Shown in pieces: positions 1,778 to 20,572 of a stretch of DNA of 55,033 bases (its first letter is position 1; each line of letters begins with the position of its first letter). A program made the position numbers and the translations under genes. This stretch comes from Bacillota bacterium (lineage in GTDB: Bacteria; Bacillota; Clostridia; Oscillospirales; Acutalibacteraceae). The notes below the pieces were generated by a model. It was not told where the DNA came from. It did no database searches and saw nothing but the letters and a program-made list of their open reading frames with translations. The DNA lies in the NCBI GenBank assembly GCA_023401495.1, contig JAEXDU010000007.1, positions 1 to 55,033 of the forward strand, given 5' to 3'.

Positions 1778-1793
1778 ATTGTACAAATAAGCA

Positions 1794-1828: not shown

Positions 1829-1851
1829 GTAAGAAACAGTGATAAATCATC

Positions 1852-2030
1852 CTATCCCTTTACTTCAACAAACCAACGATCATCCTCGCGCCATAAAAAA
1901 CGTTCTTGGCCTTTAATTCGGCACAAGTAACGAAGCTTTTAGCGAAGCAGCCTGCCGCACATCCAGTATACGGTCTATCTCATACAGCTGATCCGGTGAC
2001 CAACGGATAGCTAAGCCCTTATTTCTTTCA
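1852..2030 (-). pseudogene. Remnant of a small conserved clostridial protein usually encoded next to dinB/umuC
   Basis: IRWSPDQLYEIDRILDVRQAASLKA / frameshift / RYLCRIKGQERFLWREDDRWFVEVKG*; family recognised from memory. Confidence 0.55.
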
Positions 2031-2250
2031 GTTTTAATAAACGATATCTGTTCGTAATTATTTATAAATTCTTATTCAAATTCAAGCATTACTTTTCCGT
2101 GAATAACGGATCATATTGACGGAGAGATTTAGATCCCTATTTCAGTCTGAGCAGCATTATTTTACTAATCCGCAAACCTCTACAAGTTGTCCTCTGTTCA
2201 GAATGCTTTCCGCAAAAGTCGGATGCCTGCTATTTCGGTATCCAATCCTA

Positions 2251-2640
2251 TTAGATATCTTGAACTGTGTCCTGATCCTCTGAGATCGATGGTTTCAAGC
2301 TGGTTTTTGCGCGGGTGATGAAATAGTAGATAACCGCCAGAAGATAAACTGCCAACACGGCAAAAATCAATTTTCCCTGTTTCAAAATGGAAATTAGAAT
2401 CCCGCTTACTACGACCACATCCAATATTAACGCAATGATGGGAAGAATCGGATAAGCTACACGATAGGGCGCTTCAGATCTGATTGGGACTGACGCAGGC
2501 GAAAAACAGAAAAGATACACAGAAGTATCATAACCGCCGAGGCCGAAGTGGAAATACATACCAGAGCATTTACTTTTCCAATTAACACGCACACCAACCC
2601 GATCGCATGTAATAGCTTATAACTGGTTTCCCTCATAGCA
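2251..2640 (-). pseudogene. C-terminal fragment of an APC-family amino acid permease, frameshifted
   Basis: ORF 2457-2669 ends FRLRQSQSDLKRP and ORF 2251-2592 continues PYRVAYPILPIIALIL, rebuilding the APC 'LRxxxPDLxRPY/FK..YP' tail. Confidence 0.65.
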
Positions 2641-2677
2641 AATACTGCTTTCAACACACAAAATGACAAAGACCATT

Positions 2678-3616
2678 TCAGCTATCAATTCCTCCAAAGA
2701 TATTGACAGCCATATTGATAAACGCTTTGTGGCAAGCTGATAAATAGAATGATTTATTATAGGCGATGGAGATGCTGCGCCGCGCTTCGGCGTGGTCAAT
2801 GGGGATTGTGTAGTAGTTTTCATATTCAGGTGGGTTCAGAAGCTTAGTTATCTCTGTTTCTGAGGTGATGGTACAGTACATACCTGTACCTGCCAGTGAG
2901 CGGGCCAGGTCGCTGGAATGAATTTCCATAGCAATTTTCGGCACCAAGCCAGCAGAGGAAAAGAGCTTATCCACCCAGAGGCGCGCCGTATATCCATGGT
3001 ATGTAAGAATTAATTCTTCCGTTACGAGCTTATCCAGAGTGATCCGTTCAGGAATCGGACCATCCTTGCCAAAAAGCCGTTCGGCCGCACTCGATGTCTT
3101 GCCTACGATGAAACACAAATACTCATCACATAAGAAAACATATTCGTTATTGTAGTCGTAATTGACAAAGCTGGCAATGACCAAGTCGTATGTACCGTCT
3201 TGCAGGCTTTTCTCCCATTCAACAATGCCGTTGCGTCTGTCTGTAATATTAAGTTTAACATTTGGGTATTGGTGTACGAACCGTGGAAGGATCAATGGCA
3301 GCATATGTTGGGCTCGCCTTGCAGATATTCCCAAGGCGATCTCCCCCGAGTCCGTTCCGTTCAGGTCACTAATTTCGTTGAGAAACATTTGTCGGCTTCG
3401 CAAAACACCCTGAGCCAACGCTAGAAAACGTCTTCCAGCATAAGTCAACTTGATGCGCTTATTGTCCCGATCGAGCAGGCATACACCCAATTCATCCTCC
3501 AAAGTTTTGATCATCTGGCTGATGGATGATTGAGAAACATAAAGATTTTCCGCGGCCCGGGTCAAGCCGTTTGCCTTGATTACCTCAATGAAATATTCCA
3601 TTTGACGAAAGTTCAT
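2678..3616 (-). CDS. LysR-family transcriptional regulator
   Basis: MNFRQMEYF...LTRAAENLYVSQSSISQMIKTLEDELGVCLLDR; GGGAGG RBS before the ATG at 3616; divergent from the opine dehydrogenase operon. Confidence 0.95.
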   Translation of the reverse strand: MNFRQMEYFIEVIKANGLTRAAENLYVSQSSISQMIKTLEDELGVCLLDRDNKRIKLTYAGRRFLALAQGVLRSRQMFLNEISDLNGTDSGEIALGISARRAQHMLPLILPRFVHQYPNVKLNITDRRNGIVEWEKSLQDGTYDLVIASFVNYDYNNEYVFLCDEYLCFIVGKTSSAAERLFGKDGPIPERITLDKLVTEELILTYHGYTARLWVDKLFSSAGLVPKIAMEIHSSDLARSLAGTGMYCTITSETEITKLLNPPEYENYYTIPIDHAEARRSISIAYNKSFYLSACHKAFINMAVNIFGGIDS

Positions 3617-3689
3617 TGCTATCCCTCCCCAATATACAGTGTAGAGGAAAGTGCCACAGCCTGTGTGAATTTTGCACAAAATCAGCGAG

Positions 3690-3713
3690 AATCATAATGA
3701 AAAACTTATGATT
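3690..3713. promoter_or_regulatory. Candidate LysR binding site
   Basis: Inverted repeat aatcataa-N8-ttatgatt in the divergent intergenic region. Confidence 0.4.
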
Positions 3714-3794
3714 AGACCAATTATATTGATATTTTCCAAAAAAGTCAAGCCGTGATATGATGAAGCCACAAAAAACAACAAGGAGGGAAAGTAC

Positions 3795-4943
3795 ATGAAA
3801 CCAGCAAGAATCACTATTATTGGAGGCGGTAACGGTGCCTTTGCCGCAGCTGGTCATCTGACGCTTGTGGGCCATCAGGTTACGCTGTTTGAGATGCCAG
3901 CTTTTCAGGCAAGTCTTGATCCCATTAAAAAGAGAGGAGGAAAGCTGAAGGTAAAGTGCCTGCCAAGCAACCATCTACCGGAGGGCGAGGCCATGCTTCA
4001 CAAGCTCACGATTGATGCAAGGGAGGCCATGGAAGAATCGGACATTATCCTTGTTATCACACCCGCTCAGGGACATGAGAGCATTGCAAAGGCGATTGCC
4101 CCCTATGTTCGCAGCAACCACGTGATTGCCATTACACCTGGCAACTTTGGCGGCAGCATCAAATTCCGCAACTATCTGATAGCGGGTGGCTGCGAAGAGA
4201 GTGTGAAGGTTGCTGAATTTGAGACTATGCCATATGCAACGCGTAAGGAAAAAGATGAAAATGGCGAGATCGTGGGGCCGTGGATTCGCGGCTACAAGCA
4301 TGGTCTTGGCTGCTCTGTTTTCCCTAGCAAAAACAGCGATGAGATTTTCAACAGACTCTACGACATCTACGATATTCTCGAAAAAAGAGACAATGTTTTG
4401 GTCACCGGTGTCAGCAATGTGAATACCTATGGCCACCCGCCCTGCATGGTCGGAAGCATTCAATATATTGATAAAAAAGAAAAACCGCTGATGAATGAGA
4501 TCAAGACCGAAAGCATTGCTCACATAAGAAAAGAGCTTGATCTTGAGCATATGCAGCTGAAGAATATCGGCATCAATGTGGTTTCTGCCAGAGAAATCAC
4601 AAAAAGCTACTACGGGTATCAAAATGTATCCGAAGGCGGCAAAATTGATGATTTGGATCCTGATGATGTCTGGAGACATAACAAAATTTATGTGGACAGC
4701 AAATTGCCCGATGATTGGAATCACCGTTATTTGACGGAGGATATTCCTTTCGGTCTGGTTCCTCTTGAGGAGCTGCTTGAACAGTACGCATTACCCCATC
4801 CGATCACTACCGCATGCATCAACTTTGCAGACCTGCTTTGCGGCAAAAACTTCCGTGAGGAAGGCGCCAAATTGGCGGACTGCGGCCTGAAGGGGCTGAC
4901 GCTAAGTCAACTGCATCAGTATCTGGAGAACGGTACATATTGA
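3795..4943 (+). CDS. NAD/NADP-dependent opine (octopine/nopaline) dehydrogenase family protein
   Basis: Rossmann IIGGGNGAFAAAGHL, NVNTYGHP, and C-terminal HRYLTEDIPFGLVP signature. Confidence 0.9.
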   Translation: MKPARITIIGGGNGAFAAAGHLTLVGHQVTLFEMPAFQASLDPIKKRGGKLKVKCLPSNHLPEGEAMLHKLTIDAREAMEESDIILVITPAQGHESIAKAIAPYVRSNHVIAITPGNFGGSIKFRNYLIAGGCEESVKVAEFETMPYATRKEKDENGEIVGPWIRGYKHGLGCSVFPSKNSDEIFNRLYDIYDILEKRDNVLVTGVSNVNTYGHPPCMVGSIQYIDKKEKPLMNEIKTESIAHIRKELDLEHMQLKNIGINVVSAREITKSYYGYQNVSEGGKIDDLDPDDVWRHNKIYVDSKLPDDWNHRYLTEDIPFGLVPLEELLEQYALPHPITTACINFADLLCGKNFREEGAKLADCGLKGLTLSQLHQYLENGTY

Positions 4944-5182
4944 TCTAAAAGAACATCGAATTGTTAAGATCCGTGCCTCCCCAAAAAGGTTGACCTTGCG
5001 ATTAGGGCAGATGTATGATAGCAATAAGCGGCAATGTTTTTCTGTACCCATGATCTGCGCTCTTTGCTTACTGAGGGCTACCTGCATTTAGTTCATTTTG
5101 GGGAGGGGGAGCTGGAGGAAATTTAAAAGTATTCAACAGTCAAACAAGCAAACAATTATTAATTTAAGATTGGAGAGAACAA

Positions 5183-6187
5183 ATGAAAAAGCATTTTAGC
5201 CTTTTTATGGCCGGCTTGCTGATTTTCGCTACTCTCACGACAGGCTGTTCACAAAAAGAAGTAAATCCTCCACAAAATCAGCAATCGGCACCCATTAGCT
5301 ATCCCACCAGAGCCATTGATCTGGTTGTCCCTGGAGCAGCCGGTTCATCAACTGACCTGCAGGCAAGAATCATTTCGAAGTATTTGGCTGAAGAATTAGG
5401 GAAACCCGTAAATGTAGTCAATCGCGAAGGCGGTGGTTCTGTGACGGGTACGTTGTCGGTTTATGATGCTGAACCAGATGGGTACACACTGCTGGCTGAT
5501 TCCGGATCTTGGTCCTCCTTCCAGTTGGCGGATGAATCTCAAAAATTGCCATATGACGTATTGGATAGATCGTTTATCTGTAAAATCTCGGTTGGCGAAA
5601 CTTTCCTATGTTGCTCCTCAAAAATGCCTTGGCAAAGCCTTGATGACGTCGCGAAGGCCATTCGGAAGGATCCTGAAGACTTCATTTATGGTGGTTTGGG
5701 CGGTTTGAGCGTTAGCGACCTGATTCCCAAACAGTTCTTAGTTGAGACGGGGGCGGATTTGTCGAAAATGAACAAGCTGTCTTATACAGGTGGTGGGCAG
5801 ATTATGGCTGCTTTGGCTGGTGGCAATATACAGTTCTCCAGCGGTGGGTATGCAACAGTGCTGCCCTTTGTTCAGAGTGGTACAATCCGACCGCTGGCTG
5901 TGATCAGCGATACGCGCAATCCCAACTTCCCTGATGTACCCACTACAGTTGAAGCCGGATATCCTTCCGTAGTGTTGCGGTCATGGACTGGTATTTCTGG
6001 CCCCCCCAAGCTGCCACAGGAAATCGTTGAAAAGATTGATGCTGCTGTGGCCAAGATCGTTGAGAGGAAAGAATTCATTGACGAAATGAATTCACTATAT
6101 GCGCAGATCAAATACACAAATCACAAGGATGCGAAGGCTACTGTTATTGATGAGGCTGAAATCGTGAAGAAGCTCTTGAGCCAGTAG
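5183..6187 (+). CDS. tctC: Tripartite tricarboxylate transporter substrate-binding lipoprotein (Bug/TctC)
   Basis: Lipobox LTTGC; YPTRAIDLVVPGAAGSSTD, VVNREGGGS, PDGYTLL, PDVPTTVEAG. Confidence 0.92.
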   Translation: MKKHFSLFMAGLLIFATLTTGCSQKEVNPPQNQQSAPISYPTRAIDLVVPGAAGSSTDLQARIISKYLAEELGKPVNVVNREGGGSVTGTLSVYDAEPDGYTLLADSGSWSSFQLADESQKLPYDVLDRSFICKISVGETFLCCSSKMPWQSLDDVAKAIRKDPEDFIYGGLGGLSVSDLIPKQFLVETGADLSKMNKLSYTGGGQIMAALAGGNIQFSSGGYATVLPFVQSGTIRPLAVISDTRNPNFPDVPTTVEAGYPSVVLRSWTGISGPPKLPQEIVEKIDAAVAKIVERKEFIDEMNSLYAQIKYTNHKDAKATVIDEAEIVKKLLSQ

Positions 6188-6336
6188 GTTCAAAAGTCAG
6201 GGTATAAGGGTGTAGTTTGTCGCGCAATTTTGAGTAAAGGTTCATGCGCAGGCGAAATACACCCTTTATCTTAAGGCTGATAGTTGCAAGCTCCGTACGA
6301 TGTGCGTATTAAAAACGAACCCGGGAGGGATACAGC

Positions 6337-6918
6337 ATGAAACTATTAATAGATAAACTACGCGGGTCTGGTTATGCGTTTTTTATGGGGATATTGGGGA
6401 TTATGACACTAGCTGAAGGTTTGCGCCTGAATCTTCAGTCCACTTTGAATAAGAAGTGGCTCCTACAGCCTGGCAGTTATATCATCATTATCGGCGCTGC
6501 CCTACTGCTGCTTACCTGCTTTGAATTATTTCGTTGGTTGAAAACAAGAAATCTACAGGAAAGTACACAAGAAGTAAAAGGGCTGGCAGAAACACAAGAA
6601 ACACAAGAGACACATGAGATACAAGAGACACATGAGATACAAGAGACACATGAGCCGGTTAAAGCAATTTTAGTCCAGTGGCTTGAAAAGAACAAACGAG
6701 TTTTAATTACTTTAGTATGTATAGGAGTATATATCTTGATCATTCCATATGTTGGGATGGCGATTGCAACGATTCCGTTTCTAATAGCGGTTATGAGAAT
6801 AATGAAAAACAGTAAAAAGGCAATGGCGATCACGATACTCATTTGTTTTCTTTTCGGATATGTGCTCTTGCCGATGATGGGAATATCATTGCCACGCGGT
6901 ATTATTTTTCCGTTTTGA
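6337..6918 (+). CDS. tctB: TctB-family small membrane subunit
   Basis: Hydrophobic, C-terminal ISLPRG motif, lies between tctC and tctA. Confidence 0.8.
   Translation: MKLLIDKLRGSGYAFFMGILGIMTLAEGLRLNLQSTLNKKWLLQPGSYIIIIGAALLLLTCFELFRWLKTRNLQESTQEVKGLAETQETQETHEIQETHEIQETHEPVKAILVQWLEKNKRVLITLVCIGVYILIIPYVGMAIATIPFLIAVMRIMKNSKKAMAITILICFLFGYVLLPMMGISLPRGIIFPF
6589..6654 (+). repeat. In-frame 9/18-bp tandem repeat in tctB (ETQETQETHEIQETHEIQETHE)
   Basis: gaaacacaa gaaacacaa gagacacat gagatacaa gagacacat gagatacaa gagacacat gag. Confidence 0.9.
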
Positions 6919-6970
6919 TCAATTGATAAGAAATAACTGAGAAATACATTTATTTTTATAAGTAAGGGAG

Positions 6971-8458
6971 GTGTGTCCTTTGGACGCCGGATGGTTGATT
7001 GATGGTTTTATTTCGGCATTGTCGCCTAGCAACCTTTTTATTGCACTTATAGGGTGCTTGTTAGGAACGTTGGTGGGCGTTCTGCCAGGACTTGGTCCCG
7101 CATCTGCAATCGCTTTGCTGATTCCGTTTACAGCATATTTATCTCCTGCTGGTGCAGTGATTGGGTTGGGCTCTATTTTCTATGGGGCAATGTATGGCGG
7201 TTCAACGACATCCGTATTGTTGAATATTCCCGGTGAAGTTGCATCTGTGCCGGCAGCGCTTGAAGGTTATCAGTTGTGTAAAAAAGGCCGAGGAGGACCT
7301 GTCCTTTGTATCTGTGCACTTGTTTCTTTTATGGGGGCAATTATTGCGCTTTTAGGACTCTCGTTTTTTGCGCCGAAACTGGCTCAAATAGCGATCACTT
7401 TCGGTCCTTTTGAGTATCTTGCACTGATGATTCTCAGCTTATCCTGTGCGGTAGGACTGGCAAGTGATTCTGTCGTCAGAGGAGTAGGTGCGGCATTTGC
7501 AGGGCTAGTGATTGCAGTTGTCGGCTACGATCCTTCGGAGAATATTTTCCGGATGACGTTTGGCTCATCGTCATTGTTGTCGGGTTTTGACAGTATACCG
7601 ATTGTTGTTGGCCTTTTTGGTGTTGCCGAGGTGCTCTGTGGCATTGAGAAGGAAACCAAAATGATTACAGAAAAAATCGGAAGTTTAATTCCTTCTAAAA
7701 AGGAAATGAAGCTTGGGATGCCGGCAGGACTTAGAGGATCCTTCATTGGCGCGCTGCTGGGACTTTTGCCCGGCATGACTGCTTCCGTTGCATCGTTTCT
7801 TGGTTATGCAGTGGAGAAAAGAGTCGCGAAGGAAAAACATCTTTACGGGAAAGGCATGTTAGAAGGTGTCGCCTCGTCCGAAGCTGCAAATAACGCATGT
7901 GCGGTTTCTGGGTTCGTGCCGCTTATGGCTTTGGGTATCCCCACAGGTCCAATTATGGCTATGGTTTTGGCAGCTCTTCTGATGCAAGGCGTGGTTCCTG
8001 GACCGCTGATGTTCTCGACGAATCAGGCACTAGCGGGAACCATTATAGGCAGCTTTTTCATCGGCAACATTATTCTTGTTATATTAAACCTCCCGTTGGT
8101 AGGCATGTGGGTTCGCATTGCTACGATTCCTTACAGGATCATGGCGCCAGTTATTTTGTTCCTGTGCGCCGTAGGATCTTACTCGATTAGAAACTCCATG
8201 TTTGATCTGTGGGTGATGCTGTTATTTGGTGTTATTGGCTATATTGCAAAGAAAGTGAATTTTGGTGTGGCTCCCATGATATTGGGCTTGATTCTGGGAA
8301 CACAGCTGGAGTTCTATTTCAAACAAGCATCGGTGTTAGGATTTGGTGCTTTGTCAAATCGCCCCCTTGCAATCTGTGTTTTTATCGTGGCTGGGATCGT
8401 GTTGGCGGCGTTCACAGTTCTCAAGGGGAGAAATGCCGCATTTGGTGAGGATGATTAG
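6971..8458 (+). CDS. tctA: TctA-family large permease (start may be TTG at 6980)
   Basis: GTLVGVLPGLGP, YGGSTTSVLLNIPG, EAANNA, LGIP motifs. Confidence 0.95.
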   Translation: MCPLDAGWLIDGFISALSPSNLFIALIGCLLGTLVGVLPGLGPASAIALLIPFTAYLSPAGAVIGLGSIFYGAMYGGSTTSVLLNIPGEVASVPAALEGYQLCKKGRGGPVLCICALVSFMGAIIALLGLSFFAPKLAQIAITFGPFEYLALMILSLSCAVGLASDSVVRGVGAAFAGLVIAVVGYDPSENIFRMTFGSSSLLSGFDSIPIVVGLFGVAEVLCGIEKETKMITEKIGSLIPSKKEMKLGMPAGLRGSFIGALLGLLPGMTASVASFLGYAVEKRVAKEKHLYGKGMLEGVASSEAANNACAVSGFVPLMALGIPTGPIMAMVLAALLMQGVVPGPLMFSTNQALAGTIIGSFFIGNIILVILNLPLVGMWVRIATIPYRIMAPVILFLCAVGSYSIRNSMFDLWVMLLFGVIGYIAKKVNFGVAPMILGLILGTQLEFYFKQASVLGFGALSNRPLAICVFIVAGIVLAAFTVLKGRNAAFGEDD

Positions 8459-8531
8459 TGGCGATTGACGGAAGCAAGTTCATTTGGCGCCGGGGTTAGC
8501 TGTGTCAATTATTGAAAGGAGAGTATATATT

Positions 8532-9863
8532 ATGTTACGAATTGTAAACGGAACCATCGTGACAGGAGATGGTTTAACCATGATTTCAGGTGGCACGGTG
8601 TCTATCCATGAGGATCGTATTGTGGGTATTTCCTCGCAATATGAGGTTATGCCAGATGATACGGTGATTGACGCACAGGGTTGCTTGGTTTTTCCGGGCA
8701 TTATCAATCATCATGTACATGGTGTTGCGCCCGGACCACTGTTCCCCAGCGCCGCCCCGGCGCTTCCAATCGAGAAGGTTCGCGAGAATCTGACCCGGCA
8801 TATCTGCGAAGGAAGCACAACGATCCTCAATGTTGATGGTTTTGCCACGATGGAGGATATCGAAGAGGCACGCAAATTGGTACCCATCAATCTAATGACT
8901 GCAACCTCTCACACCCCGCTGAATTTTAAAGCGGCAGTGGCTGTTGATGGAACGGGACTTAAGGAGCGCCACAAAGCTATGACCGCTAAAAAGATGGTCG
9001 AAGCAGGTGCTGTCGCCATTGGTGAGATTGGCGGTGGACATACGCTAGGTGGCGGCGGACAGGATTATCTCTATATCCCTAGGGCTATCCGAGAGCGTAC
9101 AGGAGTTGAGATTACAGCGCCACAGGCAAAGAAACTCAAGTTTGCGGCGTTGGGGCGCTATGTTGATGTGAGTGCTTACGATGAAAAGGCCATGAAGACG
9201 GCCATGCAAGCCGCCGGGCTGGAAGGCTGCATCTCGCCGGAGATAACACGGCAGCTTATCTGCAATTCTGTGTTACCCTCTATCCAGCTTGGGCTTGACG
9301 CATTTTTAGAGGCGGCTGAGATTGCCAATCAGCTGGGCAAAACCTCGATTTATCACAATTCAGCGCCCTCCATGAATCAGATGCTCAACATTACCAAAAA
9401 GTTCCCGAACATAATCGCCGGTCACTCGAACCACACGACATTTGACCCTGATGAATCTGTTTCGTTTGCCCGTAAGCTGAAGGAAGCAGGAGGAATTATT
9501 GATGTTTCAACTCTTAAGCTTGTTTCAGCCGGAATCTATGAGGATATTCGACCTCTCTATGAGTTCTATCGAAGTGGCTTGGTGGATACCATAACGACCG
9601 ATTACGCTGCTGGATTTTGGAACTCGGTGCTGTATGGATTGGATCATATTATCAAAGAAACGGGTATCAGCCTTACCTATGCTATTGCTACGGCAACCAG
9701 CAATGTTGAGAAAGCAATTCCGGGTATTGCCCCGGATCGCGGGCTAATTGAGCAGAATAAAATTGCGGATATCACGATTGCTAGTGCCGAACGGCTCTAT
9801 GATATTAAGTATGTTTTGCTTGGGGGGAGAATTGTCGTTAAGGACGGGAAGCTTTTGGCGTAA
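8532..9863 (+). CDS. Metal-dependent amidohydrolase superfamily protein of unknown substrate
   Basis: IDAQGCLVFPGIINHHVHG (HxH), TTDY, DRGLIEQNKIADI; AGGAG RBS before the ATG at 8532. Confidence 0.85.
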   Translation: MLRIVNGTIVTGDGLTMISGGTVSIHEDRIVGISSQYEVMPDDTVIDAQGCLVFPGIINHHVHGVAPGPLFPSAAPALPIEKVRENLTRHICEGSTTILNVDGFATMEDIEEARKLVPINLMTATSHTPLNFKAAVAVDGTGLKERHKAMTAKKMVEAGAVAIGEIGGGHTLGGGGQDYLYIPRAIRERTGVEITAPQAKKLKFAALGRYVDVSAYDEKAMKTAMQAAGLEGCISPEITRQLICNSVLPSIQLGLDAFLEAAEIANQLGKTSIYHNSAPSMNQMLNITKKFPNIIAGHSNHTTFDPDESVSFARKLKEAGGIIDVSTLKLVSAGIYEDIRPLYEFYRSGLVDTITTDYAAGFWNSVLYGLDHIIKETGISLTYAIATATSNVEKAIPGIAPDRGLIEQNKIADITIASAERLYDIKYVLLGGRIVVKDGKLLA

Positions 9864-9900
9864 TACCCACCTCAATCTTAGATGATACGGATCAGAGTAC

Positions 9901-9934
9901 ATAGAGAGTATTTACGGTCGTAAATACTCTCTAT
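9901..9934 (+). terminator. Hairpin/terminator ending the opine dehydrogenase-TTT operon
   Basis: atagagagtatttacg-gt-cgtaaatactctctat. Confidence 0.7.
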
Positions 9935-9944
9935 TATTGTAGAA

Positions 9945-10010
9945 CAACCACCGGCTGTGCCGGTGGAGCAGAAAAAACTTTGGCTTTGCCCATGAAATAA
10001 ACTCACTTTT
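9945..10010. mobile_element. Probable IS200/IS605-family end remnant
   Basis: ccaccggc-tgt-gccggtgg hairpin followed by an agcagaaaaaactttggc tract, like clostridial IS200 ends (recalled); no transposase present. Confidence 0.4.
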
Positions 10011-10435
10011 TGAAAAATCAAAATAGAGAATAATATAAAAAGAGACTGCTAGATAGGCGTTTTAAGACCCTCCAATTGCATTTATGCAATTGGAGGGTCT
10101 TGACGTACCAAAAATATCTCGTAACAAAGAACTGCCAGCTTATCGTAACAGCCAGATGATTCAGAAATTCTTCTTTTACATAGTTTCAAAAGGCCAAGTG
10201 AATATTGAAGCGGCAAACGTACCACTTTTCATTTAACTCTTTTCTATTTCTTTATCTGTAAAGATTAAAAATATTATAAATTTTGTCAAACAGTTTTATT
10301 TATCGGAGCTTCATACTTCAAGACAAAATGTCCAAAGCAAAAAACGTTTCTCCTGGTTGCTACTCCCCCCCTCCCGATTTCGATTGTTCAACTCAAAAAT
10401 CAGAATGGAGGAAAGCATATGGCAATAATTAATAA

Positions 10436-10545
10436 TGATGTCGGAGGGGTCGTCCGGGTTAATTGATCCTATTGGACATCGACGAATACAAACATCGCAG
10501 TGATTGCACTTTTCCATATCCGTCTTTGGCTTGGCGGGCATAAGC
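10436..10545 (-). pseudogene. Fragment of a 4Fe-4S-binding (ferredoxin-like) domain
   Basis: KPKTDMEKCNHCDVCIRRCPIGSI = CxxCxxCxxxCP; no second cluster motif and no clear start. Confidence 0.55.
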
Positions 10546-10681
10546 CACCCACCTCTGATTCAATACCGTTTAATGGAAAAATCAATTTACAATTAGAAAA
10601 TATGTGCATTCGTACTTCGAGAGACTTTCAAGTGCGGATACTTATATACCAACCGCAAAGGAGGGACTTTCTGAGAGCTTA

Positions 10682-10729
10682 TTACCACTGCTCGTTATGC
10701 TTTTTTAACGCTTCAGCTGCATAATTCAT
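10682..10729 (-). pseudogene. 5' stub resembling a malic enzyme start
   Basis: GAGG RBS + MNYAAEALKKHNEQW*, like the clostridial malic enzyme N-terminus (recalled). Confidence 0.35.
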
Positions 10730-10890
10730 TTGTCGTTCCTCAAATTTTTGCGCATTTGGTTTTAGTATAATATGTTCTCGCTAGCTTTCAGGAATAGTCC
10801 CTCAAAATTCTTGCAAAATAAAGAAAAATATGTTTAGATTGAAAATATAAGCAATATTTCAAACTCAGCAGAGAAAGGAGATTGCTTATT

Positions 10891-11060
10891 ATGTACCAAG
10901 CATGTATCCTTGCCTTGGAAGAAACTTTGGCCGATACGCCCGATTTCATTGCGTATTTCAGACTCTGTACTGACAGAATATGGGCACTCGGCGATTAGCC
11001 GCGAAAGGTTTCGTTACCTAGCTGGAAAAGGCTCGAATTTTCTGATGCGTGGAAATGCTC
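10891..11060 (+). pseudogene. Decayed HAD-family (phosphoglycolate phosphatase-like) hydrolase
   Basis: AGGAG RBS; MYQACILALEETLADT (degraded FDLDGTLADT), then after a frameshift SVLTEYGHSAISRERFRYLAGKG. Confidence 0.6.
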
Positions 11061-11353
11061 CAGGGAATTTCTCCGAAAGGATACACAAAATACGACATAT
11101 TACTGCTTCGTAAAATTTAAAAAAAATTTTACAAGAAGGATCCAATGCTCTTTGTATATTAGTATCTGGTGCACCGGGAAAGACAGCGGCATAGTGATTC
11201 AGAAACATAAGGAAAACAAATGCAGATAGAGGAGTTCATGCCTTAAAACCACGGTCTGCGGCTGCCAAAGAAGACATTTCTGCGTTAAATGGGGAAAATA
11301 TGTCCTCTTTTATAAAATTATTCTAACCGACACAAAGATAAGAGGAGTTCACA

Positions 11354-13324
11354 ATGAAGAAAATCATAATTTTAATGCGTAATGGGCAAAAAGACAGGTG
11401 TGCAGCGAAATTTATTTCTGACAATCTTAATGAAGTTCTCGAAAACACGGTTACTATCCAAATCATGTATTTGGATGAAATTAAGACATCGCATTTATTG
11501 GAAGCAGATATTATACTTGTACCTGTTTATAATATGCTTTATGAGATAAAGGATTATTTTCATGGGGAATGGGACAATATTCTTCTTGCAACAAGAACGC
11601 TGTCGAAAGACGCTTGGAATCACATTAAGGAAATACCCGCCAAAGAAAATGTACTTGTTGTCAATAAGACGAAGGAAACTACGTTGGATATGCTTCGCCT
11701 GTTGTACCAGCTTGGAATCATGCATTTGAATTTTGTGCCTTATCAAGACGGTTATTCCTATCAGGATTTCCGATATGTTGTAACAACCGCATATGACATA
11801 AACCTTTCATTGCCCGCATCCACCAAAGTGATTGACGTGGGGTACCGAAAACTAGATACGCAAGTTTTTTTAAACATTTTTTCTAAACTTAAGATTGAGA
11901 GTGACCGCATTACCAGAAATCTAATTCAATACATGCAGAAACTTCCTCAAAAAGATACCGATGTAGAGCGGAGATATTTATCCTCAAAGCTATTAAATAA
12001 AACATTAATTAAAGTGATTGATAAATCCGAATCTGGAATCATTGTTGTTGATAATGATAAAAGAATAGTCTGTCACAATCAAATGGCAAATCATATTCTT
12101 CACACCACATTTGATTTTGGAGATCTTTTCGAGCTTCCATCAACACCCGATATAACAGAAATGTTATTTCAAAAGAATTTTCTTCAAGAACTCATACAAA
12201 TTGCCGGTGAATATATAATGGTGAAGCGAAGCCAACTGATGAGTATGGAAGAAGTGATCGGTTATTATTTTGATTTTCATACTGCTAAAAGCATCAATGA
12301 GATGGGAAGTAAATTAAGTTCCAAGCTTCACAAATCAGGATTATACGCTAGATACACCTTTCACGATATTATTTACAAGTCAGAGAATATGGAAAGGTGT
12401 CTTACAGTTGCGAAATCAATATCCAATACAAAATATCCTGTTATTATTTACGGAGAAACTGGTTCGGGTAAAGAGCTACTGGCGCAATCTATACATAATT
12501 TTTCCGACCGAAGAGAAGAGCCATTTGTTGCGGTAAACTGTGCGGCCCTTCCGGAGCAGCTTTTAGAAAGTGAATTGTTTGGTTATGAAGGGGGAGCTTT
12601 TACCGGCTCAAAGCGGGAAGGAAAACTAGGGTTATTTGAGGCCGCAAATAACGGAACCATTTTTTTAGACGAAATAGGCGATATGCCTCTTTCCCTTCAA
12701 TCAAAACTTTTAAGAGTGTTGCAGGAGCAGCAAATCATGAGAGTCGGAAGTAATGAAATCATCGATATTAACGTTCGCATTCTGTCTGCAACAAATAAAG
12801 ACCTGATGAAAGAAATTGCAAAAAATAAATTCAGAGATGATCTGTATTATAGGTTGGCCGTCTTTACGGTAACTCTTCCTGCTCTACGTGATAGAAAAGA
12901 AGATATTTTGCCTCTGTTCTATCTATTTTTCAATCTGAAACAAAATAAATTAACAGACAGTGAAAAGCAACAGCTAATAAGCTATAACTGGCCGGGAAAT
13001 GTAAGAGAGTTGCAAAATGCGGCCACCTACTACCGCATGATTGGAAATTTACAGTGCATTTCGCATCCCGCACAAAAATCTATAATTACTCAGACCGCAC
13101 AGGCAGAGACAGAAATGCTGAAAATCCTATCTGCTTATTCTGATATTGGGCTGGGCCGAGGCAATATAATAAAAATGCTTCATCAAAAAGGTGTTGAAAT
13201 CAGTGAAAAAAGATTTGAAAGTATTGTACAAAAGTTATTGAAAGACGGGCTAATAACTCGAAGTCGGGGACGAGGTGGTATTAAGCTGACAGATATAGGA
13301 AAATCTCAGGTTACTGAGCAATAA
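11354..13324 (+). CDS. Sigma-54-dependent enhancer-binding protein (N-terminal sensor, PAS-like, AAA+, winged-helix C-terminus)
   Basis: GETGSGKE, ESELFGYEGGAFTGS, TIFLDEIGD, WPGNVRELQN; C-terminal RSRGRGGIKLT. Confidence 0.95.
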   Translation: MKKIIILMRNGQKDRCAAKFISDNLNEVLENTVTIQIMYLDEIKTSHLLEADIILVPVYNMLYEIKDYFHGEWDNILLATRTLSKDAWNHIKEIPAKENVLVVNKTKETTLDMLRLLYQLGIMHLNFVPYQDGYSYQDFRYVVTTAYDINLSLPASTKVIDVGYRKLDTQVFLNIFSKLKIESDRITRNLIQYMQKLPQKDTDVERRYLSSKLLNKTLIKVIDKSESGIIVVDNDKRIVCHNQMANHILHTTFDFGDLFELPSTPDITEMLFQKNFLQELIQIAGEYIMVKRSQLMSMEEVIGYYFDFHTAKSINEMGSKLSSKLHKSGLYARYTFHDIIYKSENMERCLTVAKSISNTKYPVIIYGETGSGKELLAQSIHNFSDRREEPFVAVNCAALPEQLLESELFGYEGGAFTGSKREGKLGLFEAANNGTIFLDEIGDMPLSLQSKLLRVLQEQQIMRVGSNEIIDINVRILSATNKDLMKEIAKNKFRDDLYYRLAVFTVTLPALRDRKEDILPLFYLFFNLKQNKLTDSEKQQLISYNWPGNVRELQNAATYYRMIGNLQCISHPAQKSIITQTAQAETEMLKILSAYSDIGLGRGNIIKMLHQKGVEISEKRFESIVQKLLKDGLITRSRGRGGIKLTDIGKSQVTEQ

Positions 13325-13387: not shown

Positions 13388-13427
13388 AAAGTTAAATCCC
13401 ACATGTATACATGTGGGATTTAACTTT
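13388..13427. repeat. Perfect 40-bp palindrome (terminator and/or activator site)
   Basis: AAAGTTAAATCCCACATGTA|TACATGTGGGATTTAACTTT. Confidence 0.9.
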
Positions 13428-13481: not shown

Positions 13482-13497
13482 TGGCACGGTAATTGCT
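13482..13497 (+). promoter_or_regulatory. Sigma-54 (-24/-12) promoter 1
   Basis: TGGCAC-ggtaa-TTGCT, directly downstream of the enhancer-binding protein gene. Confidence 0.9.
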
Positions 13498-13586: not shown

Positions 13587-13676
13587 ATGGTAAAAAACAT
13601 TCTAGTGGACTGGAAATTATTCGGAGCCAAAGAGTGTATAAATTTTTTGGTTAGATCATTAACAACAGCTCGTTAA
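13587..13676 (+). pseudogene. Truncated paralogue of the 16156 gene (29 aa)
   Basis: Strong RBS (gaaaggggg); MVKNILVDWKLFGAK aligns with MVTHIQLEWPSLGIK, then diverges and stops. Confidence 0.55.
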
Positions 13677-13697: not shown

Positions 13698-15182
13698 GTG
13701 TATTCATTGGGAAAACTAACAGAATTTTTATCTGGCGAAAAAAAGGGGCGGTACCCTAAGTTCGGAGAAGCCTGTTTATTAATGGTCTTAGTTTGTGCAA
13801 TCCTAATTTTCTTTAATCTAGTGATAAAAACAAATACCATCGTAACGTTGGTTATGGCCTTAACTGTGTGTGCCGCTTTCGCCGCATTTTGGGGAAATAG
13901 CTGGCAGACAATTGAAGACATGATGCTGTCTGGACTCAGCAAGGGTCTTTTGGCACTGTTTATCAATGTCTTGATTGGAATGCTGATTGCAGCATGGTGT
14001 GCTGGAGGAACAGTTCCATATATCGTTTATTTAGGCCTTAAACTGATTGAACCACAGTTTTTGCTGGCCGCGACATTCATCGTCTGCTTTATTATGTCTG
14101 CATGCACAGGCAGCTCATGGACAACCGCTGGAACAGTTGGAATTGCAATGTACGGAATTGGTGTTGCAATGGGAATGCCACCAGGTCTAATTGCCGGAGC
14201 CGTCCTTGCAGGATCTTATGGTGGAGACAAGTTATCAATTGTGTCTGAAACGACCAATCTGGCAGCGGCTACTTCTGAAACCAAAATAATGACACACCTG
14301 AATTCCATGCTTTATGTTAGCTTACCTGCCGCAATAATTACTTTGGTGGTATATGTAATTGTCGGCTGGAGATATGGCAGCGCAGGCGTTGTCAATGATT
14401 CTGCGGTGACAGAGCTGATTCATGGATTAGAAAAAAGCTTCTGGCTCAATCCTATCCTTCTTCTACCGCTTGTAGCAATGGGATATTTGGTATACAAAAA
14501 AACTCCTCCCGTCCTAACAATGCTCGTAGGCATCATTATGGGATCAGGGTTAGCGATGTTTCAAGGCCATGATTTCAAAACAATTGCTGGAAGTTTAATC
14601 AATGGATACAATGCAAACTCTGAAATTGACTCCATCAACTCGATGTTATCTAAAGGCGGAGTCCTTGAAATGACCACTGTCGTTTTCATTATTATTGTCG
14701 GCATGTCTATGGGGGGAATTTTAAAAGATACAAAAACTTTGGAAACTATTGTCTTCCAGTTCCAAAAGTTAATCAACTCCAGATTTGCAGTTATAACGTC
14801 ATCGATGTTCACGGTTGGCACTATGGCAGCTGTTTGCGGTGATACTTACGCTTCTTACATTCTCACTTCCTCGGCATACGCAACCGCACACGACCGTCTA
14901 CAGATAGACCGTAAGGTTTTATCCCGTTCTTGTGAGCTGGGAGTTATTCTTTCCTGCCTAATGATTTGGACCTCTGGGGGACAGTTTATGTCAAACCTTT
15001 TTGGAATCTCACCTGCTGAATATGCACCATATTACATTTGGGGATATTTAATCTTTATCGTCAATATGTTTTGCGCAGCTACGGGTTGGGGCATATTTTA
15101 TACACACGGACGACGTGGATGGGGTAAAAACAAAGAGATTCCTCCTATCCTAGACATGGATCCCTTTTCGGAAAAAACATAA
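13698..15182 (+). CDS. NhaC-family transporter (start may be TTG at 13707)
   Basis: TGSSWTTAGTVG, GDKLSIVSETTNLAA, multiple transmembrane segments. Confidence 0.92.
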   Translation: MYSLGKLTEFLSGEKKGRYPKFGEACLLMVLVCAILIFFNLVIKTNTIVTLVMALTVCAAFAAFWGNSWQTIEDMMLSGLSKGLLALFINVLIGMLIAAWCAGGTVPYIVYLGLKLIEPQFLLAATFIVCFIMSACTGSSWTTAGTVGIAMYGIGVAMGMPPGLIAGAVLAGSYGGDKLSIVSETTNLAAATSETKIMTHLNSMLYVSLPAAIITLVVYVIVGWRYGSAGVVNDSAVTELIHGLEKSFWLNPILLLPLVAMGYLVYKKTPPVLTMLVGIIMGSGLAMFQGHDFKTIAGSLINGYNANSEIDSINSMLSKGGVLEMTTVVFIIIVGMSMGGILKDTKTLETIVFQFQKLINSRFAVITSSMFTVGTMAAVCGDTYASYILTSSAYATAHDRLQIDRKVLSRSCELGVILSCLMIWTSGGQFMSNLFGISPAEYAPYYIWGYLIFIVNMFCAATGWGIFYTHGRRGWGKNKEIPPILDMDPFSEKT

Positions 15183-15339
15183 GTAATTATACCTATTTTC
15201 ATCAAAGCTCACTTAATAAGCGAACCATTTTCCAGTGCAGTTATAGATCATATTAAATTTTCAATGGTTATAGGCAACAAGCATCCGTTAACTAATTAAA
15301 AGAAACAATAAAAACATAACGGATAAACAGGTGTTAAGA

Positions 15340-15659
15340 GGGATGAAGATCGCATACAAAACTAGTCATAGAAATGGAAGCTGTTGGAGCTATCTTCATA
15401 CCACTTGCTCCATAAAACACTTCTATGCCTGCATGGAACCATAGAACAGCAACTTTGGAGATATTTCCTGCTGTTATACTCTGGAAAAGCCATCCGATTC
15501 CACATAAGGCCTTAAGCATGGGTTGAAAGCCTTAAAAAAACTGACGTAGGGACGTTTGTGCCTCTTACAGGCGTTTTAATCTAATCAAGCAGCTACCCCC
15601 CACAAAGGTTCCCCAAAACGAATTTTTGGGAGCCTTTGTGGGGGTTTGTAGCAATCTGT
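15340..15659 (+). mobile_element. Degraded 3' end of an IS (IS1182-like)
   Basis: Traces of TIExxFGD and (N)LKKL motifs, a cccccacaaagg...cctttgtggggg hairpin, and a terminus ggtttgtagcaatctg resembling IS1182-type inverted repeats (recalled). Confidence 0.35.
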
Positions 15660-16059
15660 AGAAAAATCCCGCGCTGTGCGGACTCCACCTTTGCAGATAT
15701 AGAGAATATGAGAAGAAGGTCTTAAATCAAGGTGATTGAAAGTGCCGGACTCATAACAATCTGCTACTGTACCAGATTATTATGCTTAGCATATTTTGTT
15801 TTTCCCACTCATTCTTTTGAATAAAAGATTGCTCAAACACGCTGCTTTTCAGTTGTTGCCGAAAGTAATATCCCAGAAGATATTGCCTTCACTAAAACTC
15901 GCAGCGGCTAAAATATTCTTAGACAATTCTAAAGACAATTTAAAATATAAATAGTGTTTAATACGATTTAAAATAATTGACACAATTAAAACCTTAACTT
16001 CTTTTAACAAATTACGCAAAATAGAGGGATTTTGAGCAATTTCTTCTCTAAAAAACACT

Positions 16060-16075
16060 TGGCACAAAACTTGCT
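16060..16075 (+). promoter_or_regulatory. Sigma-54 (-24/-12) promoter 2
   Basis: TGGCAC-aaaac-TTGCT about 80 bp upstream of the 16156 start. Confidence 0.9.
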
Positions 16076-16155
16076 GATGTATAGAGTTATAGTAAAACTG
16101 TGTACTCTTCTTGAGCAACGCAGTTATCTAAAAAAACGTTGAAGGAGAAACGAAA

Positions 16156-16575
16156 ATGGTAACACACATCCAATTAGAATGGCCTTCTTTAGGCATCAAA
16201 GTTCGTGCAAAGTTGATGCAGGATAAGGCTCCACATTTTTGCGCGGAACTGGAAAAACTGCTTCCTTTTGAAAGCATCCATGGCCATACCGTTATTTCGG
16301 GTCACAACATGAGCATTCCTATGAAACTTCTGTGGTTGGAGCGCGAGTGTGATGCTCCTCGCCAGCCTGGCAGACTGTTCATCTACACCAATGGCCAGCG
16401 TATTGTAATCCCTTACGCGGCTACAACGGAGCCCGGTGATGTTAATTGCTTTGCGGATGTTTTTGAGGAAGATCTGCCTCTGCTCATGCAGGCTGGTCTT
16501 GACTGCAAGCATCGTTTTATGACTGGCGATTGTGAACCCCAGATAGTTATCGTATCCGCACTGAAGGAGGTATAA
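16156..16575 (+). CDS. Stand-alone N-terminal (cyclophilin-like fold) half of a McbB/cucumopine synthase-family Pictet-Spenglerase-like enzyme
   Basis: IQLEW..LGIKV, LLPFESIHGHTVISG, PYAATTE, EEDLPLLMQAG..C are colinear with the recalled McbB N-domain; GAAGGAG RBS. Confidence 0.75.
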   Translation: MVTHIQLEWPSLGIKVRAKLMQDKAPHFCAELEKLLPFESIHGHTVISGHNMSIPMKLLWLERECDAPRQPGRLFIYTNGQRIVIPYAATTEPGDVNCFADVFEEDLPLLMQAGLDCKHRFMTGDCEPQIVIVSALKEV

Positions 16576-16577
16576 TT

Positions 16578-17096
16578 ATGAATTGGCGTGAAGTAAAACA
16601 ACAAATCTTAGCTCAAATCGATGAAAACTGGCTTAAAGAGCCCGAAGCAATGTGGAAGGTTCGCCACGGCATTAGTGTGACAGGTGCGGGTTCCTTTAAT
16701 CAGTATCTTTCAACAATGATGTTCGTCGGCGTTTATACCATAGCTTATGGACAGCATACATTTTTTATGTTCTTGCAGATGGCAGAAGATCCCGAGATTT
16801 CTCTAGAGGTTTTAAAGAAGTTGACACATAATGAGTTAGCCGTCGGTTTCCAGTCCATGCAGTTTCTGGCCTACGTTTCTACACCGGAGGTCAACCAGTT
16901 TGCCAAAGATATCGATGCCGTTCTTGATCAACTCCAAACCAAGAATGATTACAAGGAATTGATTGGCGCCTATGATCGCTACATCAATCTGATCCACTAC
17001 TGGCATCACTGCACCTTCCCGTGGCATGTCGGCATGATGTATCAGTACAGAACTTCCGAGGATATTGATACGATGTGTAAACTGGCGCACGAATAG
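16578..17096 (+). CDS. Stand-alone cucumopine synthase C-terminal helical-bundle-like protein
   Basis: WLKEP, GAGSFNQYLSTMMF, FLAY, W..CTFPWHVG match the recalled McbB C-domain (W..PP, RAGSYDQYFSTLVF, FLGY, FPW.HG); own AAGGAGG RBS, 2 nt after the upstream stop. Confidence 0.8.
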   Translation: MNWREVKQQILAQIDENWLKEPEAMWKVRHGISVTGAGSFNQYLSTMMFVGVYTIAYGQHTFFMFLQMAEDPEISLEVLKKLTHNELAVGFQSMQFLAYVSTPEVNQFAKDIDAVLDQLQTKNDYKELIGAYDRYINLIHYWHHCTFPWHVGMMYQYRTSEDIDTMCKLAHE

Positions 17097-17116
17097 AAAT
17101 GGATATAGTATATGGA

Positions 17117-17230
17117 ATGGGATTAGAACATATGAAATCAAGGGATGAATCCTGAATTACAGAGGTAGTGATTCTAATATTTCTGATCTGTATCACTATG
17201 GCCTATTTAAACATCGGATTGAGTACTTAG
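17117..17230 (+). pseudogene. 5' remnant of a second NhaC paralogue
   Basis: 17159-17230 reads TEVVILIFLICITMAYLNIGLST*, aligning without gaps to GEACLLMVLVCAILIFFNLVIKT of the 13698 NhaC. Confidence 0.5.
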
Positions 17231-17338
17231 TTCTTCAATAGAACTTATTGCACTTCTCTTTACGTAGCAAATTGCAGCGCATAGCAGAAACGGACGAGGA
17301 ATAGAAACCTCTGACGTAAAATATAAAAGGATTACGTA

Positions 17339-17378
17339 GCCTGACTTCGCTCTTCAAACGGGGTCAGGCATGTTTTTA
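17339..17378 (+). terminator. Intrinsic terminator of sigma-54 unit 2
   Basis: gcctgacttcg...cggggtcaggc followed by atgttttt. Confidence 0.65.
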
Positions 17379-17434
17379 ATTGTAGACATTTATACGTGGA
17401 AGCCCTCTTTATTTCTTTGATTGCCTAAATACAG

Positions 17435-17694
17435 GATAAGGTAGAATAAGTTGCGCAAATTGAAAAAGGGATAAAAAGAGACATGGTTTGCAGCTCTTTG
17501 ATAGAATGAAGTTACCACACACCATTCTGGGAAGGAGACAGCAAACCATGTCCGAGAAAATTGTACAGTTAAATGAGGAAGTAATCAAGGGGCAAATCAA
17601 GGAGTTAGTGCATGGCAGTGTGGAGGAAACGCTAAACGGCCTGCTGGAAGCTGAAGCTGAGAAGCTGACACAAGCCGCAAATATCAAAAAATGA
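17435..17694 (+). mobile_element. IS256-family left end and truncated transposase
   Basis: End sequence gataaggtagaataagttgcgcaaattg; ORF from 17548 MSEKIVQLNEEVIKGQIKELVHGSVEETLNGLLEAEAEKLTQAA stops early. Confidence 0.8.
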
Positions 17695-17905
17695 CATAAC
17701 ATGCCTCTTTTTCACGAATATCTCAATTCCTATGCCGGATATATTCTAGGTCATCAAACTTACCAGTGAGCTTCCTTTTATCGCTAAAACCTCTCGCTGA
17801 CCGAACTTCACATAATTGCTAATAACGCAAATATCTATTTATTCTTAATTATATCTTTGTAAAGATTATAATTCAACCAAATTTCACCATTTACTATATA
17901 AAAAA

Positions 17906-17928
17906 TAGTCGGACAAATTGTCCGACTA
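17906..17928. repeat. Third copy of the GYCGGACA-N3-TRTCCGRC palindrome
   Basis: tagtcggaca-aat-tgtccgacta. Confidence 0.85.
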
Positions 17929-18249
17929 AGATATAAATATCATCAGATAATCAAAGTTCTTATTTCTTTCCTACCCGCAAAATGGTACAATTTAGAAGAA
18001 AGCAAAATTTAACCCCATTAACAACACATTAGCTGTAAGAAATTTTGCCGAATTCTTACACTAATCAAAACGTAAATCCAGTACGTTTGAAGACTAAATG
18101 TCATTAACAGGGTTGGTTTTCTGTGTTACCTCATGGTAGCATGGTTATCATATTCTTGTCAGGGGTCTTAGACGTACAGTTTACCGGCTGCGTCTAGGCT
18201 CTTGTTTTTTTGCCTCTCAGCAAAAGGATAAGATCGTGGATGTAGTAAA

Positions 18250-18445
18250 TCCATGAAAAACTGAATGCCAAAATCGGTATAGGGTGAAGTAATACTCTTA
18301 TGGTAGATAGTGCAGCCACGACCTTAACAGTTGGAACCTGTTAAGCGAGCGCGCCTGTCCTGCATAGCAGGAAAGAGCAAATACGTATCTGGTGAGAGTA
18401 GCCAGATATAGGACAGACCAGACCCGATTATTAATGACACTCAAA
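18250..18445 (+). ncRNA. Candidate structured RNA of ICE/IME type (possible antitermination element), orphaned
   Basis: Nested helices (aatcgg/ccgatt, cttaacag/ctgttaag, ctgtcct/aggacag, tatctgg/ccagata) and ordered motifs AAAACTGAAT..GCCACGACC..GCGAGCG..TAATGACACT. Confidence 0.4.
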
Positions 18446-18561
18446 AAAGATGTATATAAGGGCGATTTCAATTCCAGTTGTCTTCGCCCATTATATATAA
18501 TTTTGTCTTAATACTGCAACAAGCCCATATTACTATGAGCTTGCCGGAGTATTAAGAAGTT

Positions 18562-18638
<77 letters not shown>

Positions 18639-20482: not shown

Positions 20483-20572
<90 letters not shown>

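Follow-up and report, generated by a model that had tools for sequence, protein, structure and literature searches.

The 55,033-nucleotide stretch analysed here (the window), from contig JAEXDU010000007.1 of a Bacillota bacterium of the Acutalibacteraceae (assembly GCA_023401495.1), carries two adjoining open reading frames (ORFs), ORF1 and ORF2, whose predicted products together form a split member of the McbB/KslB/cucumopine synthase superfamily of bacterial Pictet-Spenglerases, as judged from sequence profiles and modelled structure. We favour the hypothesis that the pair is an inducible two-subunit "opine lyase" of the retro-Pictet-Spengler type, which would release an amino acid and a 2-oxo acid. 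The direction of the reaction and its substrate are proposed from homology and gene context, and a histidine-derived substrate is put forward more tentatively.

ORF1 and ORF2 lie on the same strand and have the lengths and positions given in a first-pass annotation of the sequence, which had described them as coupled genes each with a strong ribosome-binding site. The TAA stop codon of ORF1 (16573-16575) is separated by 2 nt from the ATG of ORF2. Shine-Dalgarno sequences GAAGGAG(G) precede both ORFs, at 16141-16147 for ORF1 and at 16563-16570 for ORF2, the second falling inside the last codons of ORF1. All characterised members of the superfamily are single polypeptides, whereas here a stop codon and 2 nt lie between the two parts.

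ORF2 matches the helical-bundle profile Cucumopine_C (PF18631) with 82 bits for a cut-off of 27 and E 6e-23, over positions 2-138 of the 141 in the profile. It also aligns to the C-terminal half of McbB (PDB 3X27, chain residues 186-333; E 7e-13) and to the N-terminal half of KslB-type enzymes. ORF1 is homologous to the β domains of KslB-type enzymes, with E values of 4e-9 for 9UWA, 9e-9 for 9NS6 and up to 1e-8 across 9UWA, 9NS6 and 9K0A, and to the N-terminal half of McbB (3X27, chain residues 21-144; E 2e-6). The AlphaFold model of ORF1 (predicted local distance difference test, pLDDT, 94.6) superposes in Foldseek on KslB and McbB with template modelling (TM) scores of 0.81-0.86, the value for McbB being 0.86. 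The first-pass annotation had staked its proposal on this similarity to McbB, and the motifs that it listed for ORF1 (EW, LP..S..H..SG, Y...TE, ED..L..AG..C) and for ORF2 (AGS..QY.ST..F, FL.Y, FPW..G) are all present in the HMMER alignments to 3X27.

NCBI names the relatives of ORF1 "DUF3830 family protein". The score of ORF1 against DUF3830 (PF12903) is 21.4 bits for a cut-off of 26, with residues 13-56 alone matched, and 18.6 bits in the genome scan. Its model superposes on the cyclophilin-like DUF3830 structure 3KOP with a TM score of 0.73, lower than on KslB and McbB. The score being under the cut-off, ORF1 is not a DUF3830 member at the Pfam threshold; it has the same β-barrel fold and is closer to the β domains of Pictet-Spenglerases. 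Nothing on DUF3830 was found in the literature searched.

Residue E92 of ORF1 aligns with E274 of KslB (position 274 of 9NS6) and with the glutamate that has chain index 118 in 3X27; this glutamate is residue 97 provided that 21 extra N-terminal residues are part of the construct. Both alignments agree with the earlier equation of this residue with the catalytic E97 of McbB. The E274Q variant of KslB is inactive, and E274 is stated to correspond to McbB E97 (PMC12012969). E92, H44, G49, G72 and G114 occur without exception in the 27 aligned β domains, which cover all three architectures and include the known enzymes. T91 aligns with KslB T273, and the stretch H44-T45-V46-I47-S48-G49 with KslB H221-A222-V223-V224-S225-G226, of which V223-V224-S225 is described as the oxyanion hole for the amino-acid carboxylate (PMC12012969). 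R82 aligns with KslB K264 and is not kept in the split protein of plasmid pRi1724 (see below). In ORF2, residues F49, F96, Y99 and H144 align with the KslB pocket residues F46, F89, Y92 and H134 (HMMER alignment to 9NS6).

The active site of KslB is lined by both domains and by a residue of the dimer partner, Y92 (PMC12012969). Since this pocket is built from two domains and a dimer, both ORFs would be needed for one active site, and by analogy the active enzyme is probably an (αβ)2 assembly, (ORF1-ORF2)2. For binding of the two subunits to each other, complex prediction gives weak support: the median interaction prediction score from aligned errors (ipSAE) is 0.60 (runs of 0.71, 0.60 and 0.52) and the best of three controls gives 0.00. 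The partners have pLDDT values of at least 80 and the runs share at least 69% of their contacts. Of 80 solved complexes 58 come up to the ipSAE mark, as do 2 of 110 mismatched pairs; those that pass at 0.60 or less are 7 of the 80 solved complexes and both of the passing mismatched pairs. Structures of fused enzymes are already solved, so the pass may be a memory of them. The heterodimer of the first-pass annotation is thus weakly supported by the prediction, and an (αβ)2 assembly is likelier than a simple heterodimer.

The two-gene split is the commonest architecture in the family and not a lesion. An exhaustive search of 50%-identity representatives led to 79 matches, which were sorted with our own domain hidden Markov models (HMMs). 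Fifty are stand-alone β proteins, 14 are fused in the order β-helix and 8 in the order helix-β. The rest are 4 fragments, one protein of 253 residues without a helix match and two long repeat proteins unmatched by the β HMM. There are 34 stand-alone relatives of ORF1 (83-145 residues, 50-100% identical) and 26 of ORF2. Related loci were gathered by a search with an eight-sequence alignment, which gave four genome loci, and by a metagenome scan. A helical-bundle gene is found directly 3' of the stand-alone β gene in 10 of 10 loci (the window, genome contigs, other genomes and plasmids) and in 17 of 20 metagenome loci; the β gene of the other three lies 43-416 nt from the contig end, so that only 17 are assessable. 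This layout occurs across Bacillota, Spirochaetota and Pseudomonadota, and even where identity falls to about 20-40% both proteins keep their catalytic residues. A strain-specific lesion, which the first-pass annotation had named as fatal to its proposal, is ruled out by these counts.

The order of domains varies among the fused enzymes. The earlier description of an N-terminal catalytic domain followed by a helical bundle is correct for McbB and not for the cucumopine synthase (Cus) of pRi2659 (L042, 9920-10882), in which the helical bundle comes first (residues 8-170) and the β domain second (179-318). The swap between McbB and KslB has already been described (PMC12012969). A tree of 88 β domains was built with a quick IQ-TREE run on 145 columns, with support from the Shimodaira-Hasegawa-like approximate likelihood ratio test (SH-aLRT); it is unrooted and has many unresolved forks. 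Split forms are spread throughout it, with β-helix fusions interleaved among them. The helix-β forms group in one clade (SH-aLRT 97) together with one stand-alone sequence (P0110), and ORF1 of the window belongs to an all-split clade (SH-aLRT 99). As the tree is unrooted, an ancestral split form is offered as a hypothesis.

Two loci have unusual arrangements. Locus L009 (G100:C8, 7460-8863, minus strand) codes in succession for a β protein of 140 residues, a helical bundle of 172 residues and a second β protein of 146 residues; fusion of the last two genes would give the KslB/Cus order and fusion of the first two the McbB order. Locus L037 has two tandem β+helix pairs at 1725-3830. In a sample of 401 genomes from the phylum PF18631 occurs in two, and among 61 genomes of relatives ORF2 also occurs in two; the own genome is included in each case, and the other matches are distant split systems (G001, G100). 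The pair is so rare in both samples that they support no account of vertical inheritance.

Expression of the pair appears to be under sigma-54 control (Table 1). The window has -24/-12 promoters with an adjoining enhancer-binding protein, and the genome codes for two sigma-54 factors (rpoN, Sigma54_DBD). The first-pass annotation had placed a consensus sigma-54 promoter ahead of the pair and an importer and a sigma-54 activator in its context, and all three are there: a TGGCAC-N5-TTGCT promoter, an NhaC-family transporter gene and the enhancer-binding protein gene, the last two upstream. The motif TGGCAC-N5-TTGC has exactly two matches in the window, both on the plus strand and both at the promoters of Table 1, for a chance expectation of 0.18; two or more matches were obtained in 2 of 100 shuffles. 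The N-terminal part of the enhancer-binding protein has an unknown fold; the protein also has a weak match to PAS, an AAA+ domain for interaction with sigma-54 and, at the C-terminus, a winged-helix/helix-turn-helix domain. Its best NCBIfam match is PrdR-like, under the cut-off of that profile. Full-length orthologues with 45-65% identity adjoin the same gene pair in L004, L027, L033 and L034, and it is the probable activator of both promoters. The transporter scores 331.9 bits with TIGR00931 (NhaC) and 271 bits with ArcD, both under their cut-offs. It has orthologues of 57-60% identity adjoining the pair in L033 and L034 and is presumed to be an importer or antiporter of the substrate.

Table 1. 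Features of the sigma-54 unit and the gene pair (window coordinates).
Feature	Position	Strand	Description
Sigma-54 enhancer-binding protein	11354-13324	+	656 aa; PF00158 at 233.6 bits
18-bp perfect hairpin	13388-13427		3' of the activator gene; terminator-like on both strands
Sigma-54 promoter TGGCACGGTAATTGCT	13482-13497	+	-24 GG / -12 GC; upstream of the transporter gene
NhaC-family membrane transporter	13698-15182	+	494 aa; PF03553 at 96.9 bits
Sigma-54 promoter TGGCACAAAACTTGCT	16060-16075	+	-24 GG / -12 GC spacing; about 80 nt upstream of ORF1
ORF1	16156-16575	+	139 aa; predicted β-barrel (cyclophilin-like) catalytic subunit
ORF2	16578-17096	+	172 aa; predicted helical-bundle subunit (PF18631)

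The genes around the pair in close relatives point to uptake and breakdown of a compound. These relatives are 69-88% identical to ORF1 and come from metagenome-assembled genomes of Oscillospiraceae and Clostridium and from metagenomes. Flanks are available for 13 loci (the window, L004, L006, L020-L025, L027, L031, L033 and L034); L005, L026 and L028-L030 do not extend far enough for assessment, and in L032 the neighbouring genes are unannotated. An importer adjoins the pair in all 13, of the Opp-type ABC family in six, SSF in four and NhaC in three. Genes of the hydantoinase/oxoprolinase type (HyuB/HyuA) follow the pair in three loci (L022, L027, L031) and a gene for an aromatic/histidine ammonia-lyase (HAL) in one (L025, an 86% relative). 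Seven of the 13 have an orthologue of the sigma-54 activator (45-67% identical) and three have a GntR/FCD regulator. Tailoring, oxidation, export, resistance or biosynthetic genes adjoin the pair in none of the 13, which bears out the first-pass remark that biosynthetic tailoring genes are lacking. More distant split systems are found inside TRAP or TAXI-TRAP operons (L007 and L009, the latter also with an asparaginase and a GntR regulator), and in L010, from a species of the same genus, the split pair directly follows a HAL gene. Around the tandem pairs of L037 lie genes for aminotransferases of class I/II and class V and for an MmgE/PrpD-family protein. The genome of the window has three full-length HAL-family genes (contigs C80, C249 and C93; open frames of 509-529 aa) and one urocanase.

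Members of the family carried by opine plasmids have a similar setting. In pRi1724, of the mikimopine type, a fused synthase gene lies inside the T-DNA (transferred DNA) and is followed by an exact T-DNA border core. A split pair annotated as "DUF3830 family protein" and "hypothetical protein" starts about 630 nt beyond this border, and genes for an ABC importer of amino acids, for hydantoinase/oxoprolinase A and B and for a GntR regulator lie beside it; the β protein of the pair is 40% identical to ORF1 (E 7e-29). Plasmid pHS1 of Sodalis praecaptivus has a split pair (35% identical) together with hutH, an ABC importer and oxoprolinase A/B. Plasmids pRi2659, of the cucumopine type, and pTiLBA1190 have each two fused members besides the T-DNA synthase, in an island with hutC, hutH, hutI, hutG, hutU, formimidoylglutamate deiminase, an ABC importer and hydantoinase A/B. 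The synthase copies of Agrobacterium are inside the T-DNA and the split or extra copies outside. An MmgE/PrpD-family gene lies between cus and the amino-acid ABC/HyuAB genes of pRi2659. The window shares with this module an importer next to the family member, in the form of the NhaC-family transporter of the sigma-54 unit. Gut Firmicutes with close relatives of the pair (76-87% identical) have partners like those on the plasmids. The authors of Ti-plasmid studies ascribe hydantoinase/oxoprolinase pairs to opening of opine lactams (PMC6733357, PMC8554961).

By analogy, the plasmid context suggests a catabolic use of the family. The cucumopine-catabolic region of pRi2659 and pTiLBA1190 is reportedly described in a study on pAtAg67 (Hooykaas et al. 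2022, Plasmid 121:102629), which may already discuss such a use. The first-pass annotation had considered ring opening of cucumopine-like compounds; this catabolic role has strong comparative support from the contexts of the plasmids and of the relatives, the activity itself being proposed by analogy.

We therefore privilege a pathway in which the sigma-54 activator would sense the compound or its product and fire both promoters, one driving the NhaC-family transporter and the other ORF1-ORF2. The carrier would import a heterocyclic amino-acid adduct resembling cucumopine or mikimopine. ORF1 would provide the barrel with the catalytic glutamate and the carboxylate-holding loop, and ORF2 the helical bundle that closes the pocket. 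As general acid/base, E92 would protonate the ring carbon, the C-C bond would break to give an iminium ion, and its hydrolysis would yield a 2-oxo acid together with an amino acid, for which histidine is the likeliest candidate. These would both enter fermentation, the three HAL-family genes and the urocanase being available for histidine use. Histidine is the best guess, held with some reserve, because hutH/HAL recurs near the pair and because cucumopine and mikimopine are adducts of histidine and 2-oxoglutarate.

Several points weigh against such a lyase. [quoted passage not shown] The NhaC-family carrier could be an exporter or antiporter. No hydantoinase/oxoprolinase or HAL/hut genes lie beside the pair in the window, and the sole HyuA/B of the genome (contig C180), shares just 36-38% identity with the HyuA/B linked to the pair in relatives and is not their orthologue. 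Adjacency of HAL among close relatives is limited to one locus (L025). Loci L004 and L021 are near-identical and several metagenome loci are perhaps from the same species, so that the counts given above overstate independence. KslB R256, essential for 2-oxoglutarate binding (PMC12012969), aligns with a gap in ORF1, where R73 stands two residues before the gap, and the indole-pocket residues Y230 and W232 of KslB are replaced by S53 and P55. These differences mean that the substrate cannot be read from the sequence even though the chemistry appears conserved.

The pair could instead be a biosynthetic Pictet-Spenglerase that joins imported tryptophan, histidine or tyrosine to a keto acid or aldehyde, giving a β-carboline or imidazopyridine for signalling or carbonyl detoxification. 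Every characterised member (McbB, KslB, AsKslB, Cus, the mikimopine synthase Mis and fungal tryptopine synthases) is a synthase (PMC12012969, PMC12547825, PMC12536604), all catalytic residues are kept, and thermodynamics favour condensation. We nevertheless regard this as rather unlikely: the 13 close loci have no adjoining genes for tailoring, oxidation, export or resistance, and the partners that recur (importers, enzymes that open lactams, an ammonia-lyase) are those of the opine-catabolic islands of plasmids. The division in Agrobacterium between synthase copies in the T-DNA and split or extra copies outside it argues in the same direction.

An isomerase or epimerase of the adducts, for instance one that opens the ring and closes it again to interconvert cucumopine-type and mikimopine-type diastereomers, or an enzyme of another non-lytic preparatory step, is improbable. 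An adduct opened and closed again in a single active site would be epimerised at its quaternary carbon, and the multiple copies in L009 (β-helix-β), L037 (two tandem pairs) and pRi2659 (two different fused copies side by side) could mean differing stereospecificities or roles. However, no other candidate C-C cleaving enzyme recurs nearby, and most loci have a single pair. Still less credible is a non-catalytic ligand-binding or regulatory pair, such as a cytoplasmic receptor for the transported compound: the cyclophilin-like fold of ORF1 is common to uncharacterised DUF3830 proteins like 3KOP, but the catalytic glutamate and the oxyanion-loop residues H44 and G49 are invariant in all 27 aligned sequences, known enzymes included. 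An origin of the split in a lesion (frameshift or nonsense) of a once fused gene or in an assembly artefact, with inactive products, is refuted, despite the existence of fused forms (22 of the 79 representatives) and of an insertion sequence (IS)-like fragment and a tRNA gene 3' of the pair, by the start codon and Shine-Dalgarno sequence of each ORF, the recurrence of the layout and the conservation of both proteins.

Comparison of the proposed lyase with known systems shows what is shared and what is specific. McbB, the marinacarboline β-carboline synthase of Marinactinospora thermotolerans (3X27), has the β-barrel followed by the helical bundle, as in the gene order of the pair, and the same glutamate; it is one polypeptide of about 314 residues encoded in a biosynthetic cluster, while the pair has a gene and a ribosome-binding site for each part and is accompanied by an importer and a sigma-54 activator and not by biosynthetic genes. 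KslB and AsKslB (9NS6, 9K0A, 9UWA), actinomycete Pictet-Spenglerases acting on L-tryptophan and 2-oxoglutarate, are the best PDB matches of ORF1 and differ in having the helical bundle first, in being single-chain and in acting as synthases in kitasetaline biosynthesis. Cus and Mis, from the T-DNAs of pRi2659 and pRi1724, respectively, belong to the same superfamily and use histidine and 2-oxoglutarate, a chemistry proposed here to be reversed. They are fused (Cus as helix-β, Mis as β-helix), expressed in the plant from the T-DNA, and synthases. The two fused cus-like genes of pRi2659 and pTiLBA1190 belong to the same family, have a clearly catabolic setting and differ from the pair by their fusion and their position on distant branches of the β tree. 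Closest in organisation are the split pairs of pRi1724, of S. praecaptivus pHS1 and of Sinorhizobium medicae plasmids, which have the same two-gene order and are 35-40% identical to ORF1 and 29-31% to ORF2. These proteobacterial pairs, likewise uncharacterised, differ in being accompanied by amino-acid ABC importers, oxoprolinase A/B and hutH and by GntR or RpiR regulators rather than by sigma-54 control.

The family and the domain swap are already known and the split form is common in databases. Within the literature searched, the two-subunit, sigma-54-controlled, probably catabolic version in anaerobes is unreported. The split form of the family is not mentioned there either, the supplements of the KslB papers and Hooykaas et al. 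2022 lying outside that search. The members studied so far are single-chain and biosynthetic and are being engineered as biocatalysts, while the commonest natural architecture is the two-subunit form, which offers a simple explanation for the swap of domain order between McbB and KslB. If true, the catabolic role would mean that an enzyme carries out a C-C cleavage of the retro-Pictet-Spengler type. For Agrobacterium plasmids, it would supply the cleavage step that has long been missing from cucumopine and mikimopine catabolism, and it would imply that anaerobes of the animal gut use related "opine-like" nutrients.

A broader scenario, to which we give slightly less than an even chance, would combine these elements. 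Anaerobic gut-type Firmicutes and some spirochaetes would have a sigma-54-induced salvage of opine-like compounds with the first dedicated retro-Pictet-Spenglerase, a two-subunit C-C lyase serving for recovery of the amino acid, and the split form would be ancestral, with McbB-type and KslB/Cus-type enzymes arising by alternative fusions. Its substrates would be imidazo- or pyrido-fused adducts of histidine and oxo acids from plants, diet or spontaneous chemistry, and β-helix-β arrangements like that of L009 would be fusion intermediates.

The surroundings of the sigma-54 unit have additional features. The gene order is activator, pair, NhaC in L033 and L034 and activator, NhaC, pair in the window, which looks rearranged. 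The region of about 970 nt between the transporter and ORF1 (15183-16155) has no convincing gene, shows no similarity to neighbour genes of the related loci and contains a long inverted repeat tipped with G/C around 15590-15650. No remnants of SSF, HyuA/B, HAL or Opp genes are found in the window, including its gene-poor segments 9864-11353, 15183-16155 and 17097-18560. Just 3' of the pair, a 68-aa ORF (17488-17694) without Pfam match resembles, we presume, the N-terminus of an IS256-type transposase; it is followed by tRNA-Met (18562-18638, minus strand) and tRNA-Leu (20486-20572, plus strand). The pair possibly lies at a rearrangement point, which may perhaps explain the absence of HyuA/B or HAL partners.

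A 29-codon ORF at 13587-13676, situated between the promoter at 13482 and the start of the transporter gene, has a strong Shine-Dalgarno sequence; it may encode a leader peptide or have arisen by chance. A second cluster, of opine-type character, lies at 2678-9863, directly upstream of the sigma-54 unit, and includes a LysR regulator (minus strand), an NAD(P) dehydrogenase of the Octopine_DH family (3795-4943), a tripartite tricarboxylate importer TctC/TctB/TctA (5183-8458) and an amidohydrolase (8484-9863). This cluster and the sigma-54 unit may form a small catabolic island, both serving for amino-acid/oxo-acid conjugates. Elsewhere in the window, a T-box leader (35720-35947, 116 bits) is found ahead of the ORF at 35892-37136.

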